Shown one piece after another: positions 44,977 through 45,095 of a stretch of 64,000 bases of DNA. Origin of the DNA: Eledone cirrhosa. Taxonomy: Eukaryota. Made by a program: the position numbers and the translations under genes. Each line of letters begins with the position of its first letter. The first letter of the stretch is position 1. The notes under the pieces are model-generated. The model saw only the letters and a list, made by a program, of their open reading frames with translations. It did no database searches and had not been told where the DNA came from. The stretch is from assembly GCA_964016885.1 (NCBI GenBank), contig OZ024749.1, positions 43,152,001-43,216,000 of the forward strand, given 5' to 3'.

Positions 44977-45093
44977 AGGAACGAGTAGGACCCCGACGGG
45001 GTCCTACTCGTTCCTATTACCCACTCTACTACACTAAGTATTGAGTACTTTGGTGCGTTATGGTCCACCTGGTTCCTTACCACATTTCCTCCG

Positions 45094-45095
<2 letters not shown>
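44977..45095 (+). mobile_element. Family A module starting at the predicted hammerhead cleavage site, with a 21-bp fold-back
   Basis: aggaacgagtaggaccccgac|ggggtcctactcgttcct.. followed by the family A tail and (TA)n. Confidence 0.8.

Follow-up and report, generated by a model that had tools for sequence, protein, structure and literature searches.

Head-to-head hairpins of a Penelope-like element in Eledone cirrhosa as a possible record of its template RNAs

The described system closest in motifs and target to the repeat studied here is the Hydra clade of Penelope-like elements (PLEs), which Craig et al. 2021 (PMC8557442) characterize by an RWK motif, DKT in place of DKG, CxCX5C, a C-terminal endonuclease (EN) with CxxC/CxH around conserved E/N, and insertion into (TA)n; Hydra-1_Obim is listed in the supplement. 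PLEs can carry hammerhead ribozymes in their pseudo-LTR (pLTR), with a function that the same article calls unclear, and PMC4209133, which reports a U3-A8 core covariant in PLEs of Schistosoma mansoni, states that in vivo evidence is absent. In addition, PMC2377424 and PMC3846280 describe internal pLTR promoters for Penelope, and for L1 and SVA, an untemplated G at the complete 5' end of insertions has been attributed to copying of the m7G cap (PMC3287187).

Here we present an analysis of an insertion at position 44977 of a 64-kb stretch of the Eledone cirrhosa genome (hereafter the window) and of its family throughout the 3.0-Gb assembly. The initial annotation had proposed that the template of this insertion was a self-cleaved RNA, and hence that the ribozyme defines the mobilised unit. 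Our results bear on the in vivo action of PLE hammerheads and on the origin of inverted pLTRs. Hundreds of independent insertions point to cleavage by a PLE hammerhead in the germ line, quantified at about 3% of the hairpins in the two classes counted, and the share of hairpins ending at the cut site correlates with the integrity of the ribozyme core, a correlation that is suggestive only. Furthermore, the main template end is located by a cap-like G, which speaks for a template of sense polarity with priming from both ends of the target. A literature search in which subscription journals were thinly covered retrieved no report of such junction peaks for PLEs.

A Penelope-like element with Hydra-clade motifs

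The repeat, initially named 'family A', is the pLTR of a PLE with Hydra-clade motifs, as established by the layout of a long copy, the copies that retain an endonuclease, the Hydra-type motifs and the (TA)n targets. With 17,126 exact matches to a 35-nt tail pattern in the assembly, the family has at least 17,126 copies. The long copy L031 (G000:C11) comprises, in this order, a pLTR, an ORF with RT motifs (FDIESYY, MGA and YRDDG, along with RLRWR and SDKTG), a second pLTR and finally a pLTR in inverted orientation; a deletion has removed most of the endonuclease region from this copy (L031:3000-3720, minus strand). The C-terminal endonuclease region is kept in L145 and L058, and displays in the former CxCX5C, VIYQ..YIG, CxxC and CxH (CNCPDRSIC, CNLC..EE..LLN..CKH). 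The organization is that of EN+ PLEs, with a single ORF for RT and GIY-YIG between pLTRs, interrupted by stops and frameshifts in the observed copies, and with an inverted, 5'-truncated pLTR and a one-sided tail, the inverted arm being detected in 148 of 226 sampled copies. The Hydra-clade features of motif and target were also found, namely RWR at the position of RWK, DKT for DKG, CxCX5C, CxxC/CxH around the conserved E/N, the C-terminal EN and insertion into (TA)n.

A Pfam search of the element protein returned no match, and among five homologues GIY-YIG was weakly matched in one (E=0.014). The element protein has 582 longer homologues, the best 120 of which are mostly about 700 aa long, and its search against PDB gave no useful match. 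The retrieved stretches also contain other PLE families that are older and whose proteins bear these motifs, at 38-65% identity to this family (L094, L099, L117, L136 and L149). Two other identities, retrozyme and MITE, were rejected because the stubs are parts of a PLE pLTR: non-LTR retrozymes (10.64898/2026.07.22.740005) are head-to-tail tandems of units each with a whole hammerhead and no ORF, whereas the present copies are dispersed head-to-head stubs, mostly devoid of the 5' half of the ribozyme, and the long ones adjoin the PLE ORF.

The focal insertion and the predicted hammerhead

Positions in the pLTR are numbered from the predicted cut, GCCGUC^GGGG, with G+1 the first G past GCCGUC and C-1 the C of GUC. 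The focal copy is a 117-base head-to-head hairpin stub (window 44978-45094) with (TA)n target runs on its left (44964-44977) and right (45095-45156). Its inverted arm (44978-44994, minus strand) is the complement of +17 to +1, and its outer end, which further copies share, falls on the second of the predicted starts of reverse transcription (TTCC|TA). The sense arm (44998-45094, plus strand) is the 3' part of the pLTR from +1 to +97, which continues into the ORF in full elements, and it holds the 80-nt 'tail' (45015-45094, plus strand) between +17 and +97, the two positions predicted as reverse-transcription starts, after each of which the element has TAT. The two arms meet at the junction GAC/GG (44995-44999, with GAC at 44995-44997), within which the predicted cleavage position falls between 44997 and 44998.

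The initial annotation correctly read the sense copy as starting at (C)GGGGTC and the inverted arm as extending to the GUC triplet, and overlooked both a 3-nt overlap and the placement of GUC. The junction is ambiguous over these 3 nt of microhomology (CGG), the inverted arm being readable to -5 and the sense arm from -1, and an identical junction occurs at L224. Moreover, GUC stays on the 5' cleavage product, so that the arm carrying its complement was not copied from the cleaved 3' product alone. The inverted arm of this copy was therefore likely templated by uncut RNA and joined via CGG, while the sense arm, and only that arm, may derive from cleaved RNA; a cleaved-RNA origin of the copy as a whole is ambiguous and unprovable for that locus.

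The other copies of the window all lie on the minus strand. The copy at 16531-16699, with a sense arm from -25 (16653 down to 16531) and an inverted arm (16654-16699) reaching about -30, includes GAAA, helix III and GUC^G, with its G+1 at 16628, and its earlier reading as GAAACGGC..GCCGUC^GGGGUC holds on that strand. At 52720-52916 lies a hairpin from a diverged subfamily (identity about 88%) that runs past the cut site and, like the 16531 copy, reaches well beyond it; in this subfamily the 3' strand of helix II differs from that of the main family, and its two arms differ from each other. The copy at 52942-53041, which has no inverted arm, starts at -2, within 2 nt of the cut site as annotated, and a 26-nt tail-end fragment lies at 63281-63306.

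The focal insertion occupies the TA apex of an inverted duplication of host DNA (window 44778-44976 and 45144-45312), made of part of a SINE-like repeat and about 60 bp of flank and near-perfect beside the TA run; flanking inverted repeats were rejected as a general product of insertion, being found in 3 of 142 scored copies. This SINE-like repeat, of about 210-330 bp, is abundant in both orientations, often as partial tandems (window 3337-3661, 7297-8133, 11795-12017, 30904-31297, 44707-44918 and others). Near-perfect microsatellite-rich hairpins on TA runs or TG/CA pairing (window 56529-56658, 56682-56884 and 1584-1769) and tandem arrays of a 64-bp unit (8.6 copies, 93% matches, window 12981-13532) and a 43-bp unit (4.4 copies, 25832-26022) were also noted.

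Around the predicted cut, the long copies (n=57) display a helix I ACCCC/GGGGU, a helix II of about 55 nt closed by G-C, GAAA, GUC, and a helix III of 5-6 bp with a palindromic loop. The strict CUGANGA core anticipated upstream by the initial annotation was found in 0 of these 57 copies; what lies there is a hammerhead-shaped motif whose core is the known U3-A8 covariant. The core reads CUGAGAA in 35 copies, UUGANAA in 20 and otherwise in 2, most of the 35 CUGAGAA (C3.A8) copies coming from a search seeded with such a copy. All four bases occur at N7 among the 20 UUGANAA copies, and outside the seeded search 17 of 24 copies combine U3-A8 with G, U, C or A at N7. The features of a type I hammerhead (pair 3-8, free N7, G10.1-C11.1, GAAA and NUH) are thus present together, except in the C3.A8 copies, where such a core should impair cleavage.

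G10.1-C11.1 and A15.1-U16.1 were present in 13 of 13 copies, and the three helices were paired in 94.8% of cells across these 13 copies, against 25-53% when the alignment was slid; compensatory pair changes, sought among the same 13 close copies, were absent. Folding placed the hammerhead within 0-2.2 kcal/mol of the minimum free energy in 5 of 9 copies (L031, L048, L053, L058 and L115) and 3.8-4.4 kcal/mol above it in L152 and L163, and it fared much worse in L112 and L133, which are truncated or mutated. A family-specific descriptor detected the motif, and a generic hammerhead descriptor did not; in an Rfam search of the window, where only half-ribozymes occur, hammerhead was absent among the 150 of 351 matches listed, which were miRNA-type chance matches only.

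Arm ends and what they say about the template

To describe the breakpoints, we sampled 226 distinct copies regardless of their 5' end (90 loci for the first 100 tail matches, i.e. 98 tail matches, and 90 loci via a second pattern), and a search biased to focal-type junctions was excluded from the counts. The outer ends do not vary: they fall at +97 and +17, and a TAT that matches the target follows each. The sense arms (n=226) end beyond -46 in 18 copies, at -46 to -33 in 118, at -32 to -4 in 35, at -3 to +2 in 13 and further 3' in 42; among the 148 inverted arms detected, 105 end at -46 to -33 and 8 at -3 to +2. The modal end is -41 on both arms (26/226 sense, 22/148 inverted).

Hairpins were also counted genome-wide with fixed anchors on both arms separated by a spacer d, which equals 8 if both arms end at G+1. 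We obtained 12 matches with d 0-5, 354 with d 6-13, 52 with d 14-21 and 10,007 with d 70-100, counts in which full palindromes may appear twice. The sharp peak at GUC^G for which the initial annotation proposed to test thus exists, with 354 hairpins against 12 and 52 in the adjoining bins (Poisson p~1e-213 relative to the flanking rate). The resulting proportion of about 3% is the share of two bins only, d 6-13 and d 70-100 (354 vs 10,007). The flanks of 30 fetched cut-site loci differ, and three subfamilies are represented among them.

From this peak at G+1 we infer self-cleavage at GUC^G. The strongest competitor, which we consider unlikely but worth serious attention, holds that the peak reflects either self-complementarity (CCCCG/CGGGG, CCG.CGG) guiding end joining, or pausing of the RT on uncut RNA at the base of helix III, of which G+1 is also part. 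The first 100 of the 354 cut-site matches, read by eye, leave it some room: 33 are blunt CCCCGGGG-type joints, ambiguous in that CG microhomology fits them, and 21 have one arm passing the site, 10 of these resembling the 44977 type with its CGG overlap, for a total of 54 junctions ambiguous or past the site. A repeat-driven false peak does exist at -7, where a pile-up of 7 copies was not accepted as a template end, being partly due to deletion between two 8-nt repeats; a pile-up of 10 copies at +12 was likewise not accepted, as it partly consists of diverged subfamilies.

By contrast, in the remaining 46 of the 100 junctions listed both arms end at or just 3' of G+1, with short untemplated fillers, mostly A/T, between them and C-1 on neither arm, whereas arms that ended by pausing at helix III would be expected to carry the unpaired C-1 in many cases. 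Nor would a pause stop both arms together: when the sense arm ends at -5 to +3, the inverted arm ends there too in 7 of 10 hairpins, against 4 of 138 others (p=1e-7), and such agreement within an insertion indicates a feature of the template, not pauses occurring independently. Finally, fewer hairpins end at the cut site in the subfamily of the focal copy, many of whose long copies have the mismatched C3.A8 core (74 cut-site hairpins vs 3,921, 1.9%), than in the remaining copies (280 vs 6,086, 4.6%; p=6e-13), a contrast that is suggestive only since the focal subfamily is mixed (it has U3-A8 copies too) and perhaps of a different age, and thus confounded. The C3.A8-containing subfamily still yields cut-site hairpins. 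Taken as junction evidence, self-cleavage is the preferred reading, and the ribozyme likely cuts in the germ line.

The main end has a signature of its own. Genome-wide, 161 matches carry before A-41 a purine derivable from neither arm, which is G in 93 of the 100 matches listed, a few of them duplicated loci. A control at -38 gave 6 matches, 5 of them G, and is thus G-rich too, only the count differing (161 vs 6). A separate tally, with 20 of 25 Gs at -41, is weaker, since many of these may derive from the other arm. A-41 and A-45 are the A of what we take to be initiator-like words (TYAGT and TCATT). The untemplated G likely marks a capped transcription start near -41, inside helix II, as judged from these junctions.

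Alternatively, the -41 peak could be a stall of the RT in the distal hairpin of helix II, with the extra G acquired by a template jump to a nearby TTGAG. The spread of ends over -33 to -46, which is the 3' strand of that hairpin, and the TTGAG-like form of most G junctions (AATT-G-AGTCC) agree with such a stall, but the RT gets through the stronger, GC-rich helix III, and the G follows several contexts (TTC, AAT, AA, ATA) and occurs almost exclusively at -41 (161 matches vs 6 at the likewise G-rich control). The presumed initiator-like words at -41 and -45 also speak against a stall, as do poly-T runs adjoining -44 in some copies, which are expected at a template end, and we therefore regard it as improbable. 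These poly-T runs of 8-18 nt stand immediately before -44 (L306, L120 and others), as if the RT had slipped time and again on the U run ending the template, or had added a tail of A to the cDNA. Internally deleted tandems occur in L132, L140 and L034, produced by template jumps that leave from about -41/-45 and land in the ORF or the 3' region, with three short units in tandem in L140.

The G also informs on how the inverted arm is made. Of 28 G loci read by eye, 16 carry it on the tailed arm and 12 on the tail-less one; as it may stand on either, both arms reached the RNA end independently, and each can be RNA-templated cDNA. An inverted arm copied back from the first cDNA by snap-back, or generated through self-priming on an antisense template as proposed in PMC3846280, would fit the palindromic head-to-head junctions, and snap-back would also lead to matching arm ends. 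However, a snap-back copy cannot exceed the reach of its template, and in the 12 loci with the putative cap G on the tail-less arm the tailed arm ends at about -34; a G located at the sense 5' end means that the template was sense; and in the anole system the protein starts at two internal sites and extends both strands of the target (PMC11167929). We give such an origin little credence, and the presence of the cap-like G on either arm, together with the matching arm ends, favours twin priming on one RNA.

The initial proposal that self-cleaved RNA is the normal template, to which the sharp G+1 peak and the hammerhead motif lend some appeal, is barely credible: where the breakpoints fall refutes it, provided that the -41 class is no artefact. 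In the two bins counted, hairpins with ends near -41 outnumber those at the cut site 28-fold, and among the 226 sampled sense arms the numbers are 118 vs 13. Long copies also keep a whole hammerhead upstream of the site, and ribozyme mutants of the anole PLE had no effect on in vitro insertion (PMC11167929). What stands of it is a minority class ending at GUC^G. Set against 10,007 hairpins whose ends fall around -33 to -46, the 354 at the cut site make cleaved RNA a minor template, and the unit that usually moves is not defined by the ribozyme.

A proposed mechanism and its counterparts

We consider it probable, with clear reservations, that these insertions arise by twin priming on one RNA in (TA)n, the RNA 5' end being usually a capped start at -41 and, in about 3% of the hairpins in the two bins, the hammerhead cut. 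The endonuclease would cut both strands in (TA)n, and each target 3' end would prime at an internal site, +97 or +17, in the way described in vitro for the anole protein (PMC11167929). Both cDNAs would then extend to the RNA 5' end, and their head-to-head joining would involve trimming, microhomology or fillers. The usual template end would be the capped start provided by an internal promoter, and the rarer one the 3' product of in vivo self-cleavage of an RNA spanning the whole pLTR. Transcripts from -41 are without the 5' half of the hammerhead and so would not be cut at the first pLTR; cutting needs read-through of a whole pLTR, which would explain the rarity of cut templates. In a broader reading, to which we give about even credence, the junctions form a genome-wide fossil record of template RNAs, which would register in vivo hammerhead cleavage (about 350 hairpins), a capped start in helix II that blocks cuts in the first repeat, and twin priming leading to the inverted pLTR.

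In L1 twin priming, an inversion results from a second priming event, and the two arms correspond to neighbouring stretches of the RNA. Here, unlike in L1, both arms copy the same part of the RNA and both reach its end. The extra G at the complete 5' end is nevertheless a trait shared with L1 and SVA (PMC3287187).

The likeness to the Hydra clade, as described in PMC8557442, extends from the protein (RWR, which is RWK-like, DKT, the CxCX5C linker, plus GIY-YIG at the C terminus with CxxC and CxH) to the insertions ((TA)n targets, a hammerhead in the repeat, an inverted 5' copy and a one-sided tail). By contrast, the tail is here 80 nt long rather than 30-40, the 3' region of about 1.2 kb makes for a longer unit, and the U3-A8 core, the helix II of about 55 nt and the more than 17,000 mostly solo hairpin stubs set this family apart. 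The Hydra placement is one by motifs and target.

The Anolis carolinensis element Poseidon (PAc; Frangieh et al. 2024, PMC11167929) shares with this element two internal reverse-transcription starts bounding the tail, AT-rich targets, the cutting and extension of both strands, and a predominance of uncut RNA as template. In that study, no reads of RNA were found to end where the ribozyme cuts, nor was a role of the ribozyme in insertion found, whereas in the present family some genomic insertions, a minority that was counted, end exactly at the cut, and the principal template end is marked by a cap-like G. With the PLE hammerheads of PMC4209133, the motif has in common a type I topology in the pLTR, a palindromic loop 3 and a proposed role in processing of a precursor RNA, but differs by a stable helix III (5-6 bp) and a very long helix II containing the putative transcription start. 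Finally, in R2 non-LTR elements with a 5' HDV-like ribozyme, the ribozyme route is the main one, and a promoter is not identifiable (PMC11331408); in the present element, ribozyme, RT and endonuclease differ, the ribozyme route accounts for about 3% of the two hairpin classes counted, and the presumably promoter-derived end dominates.
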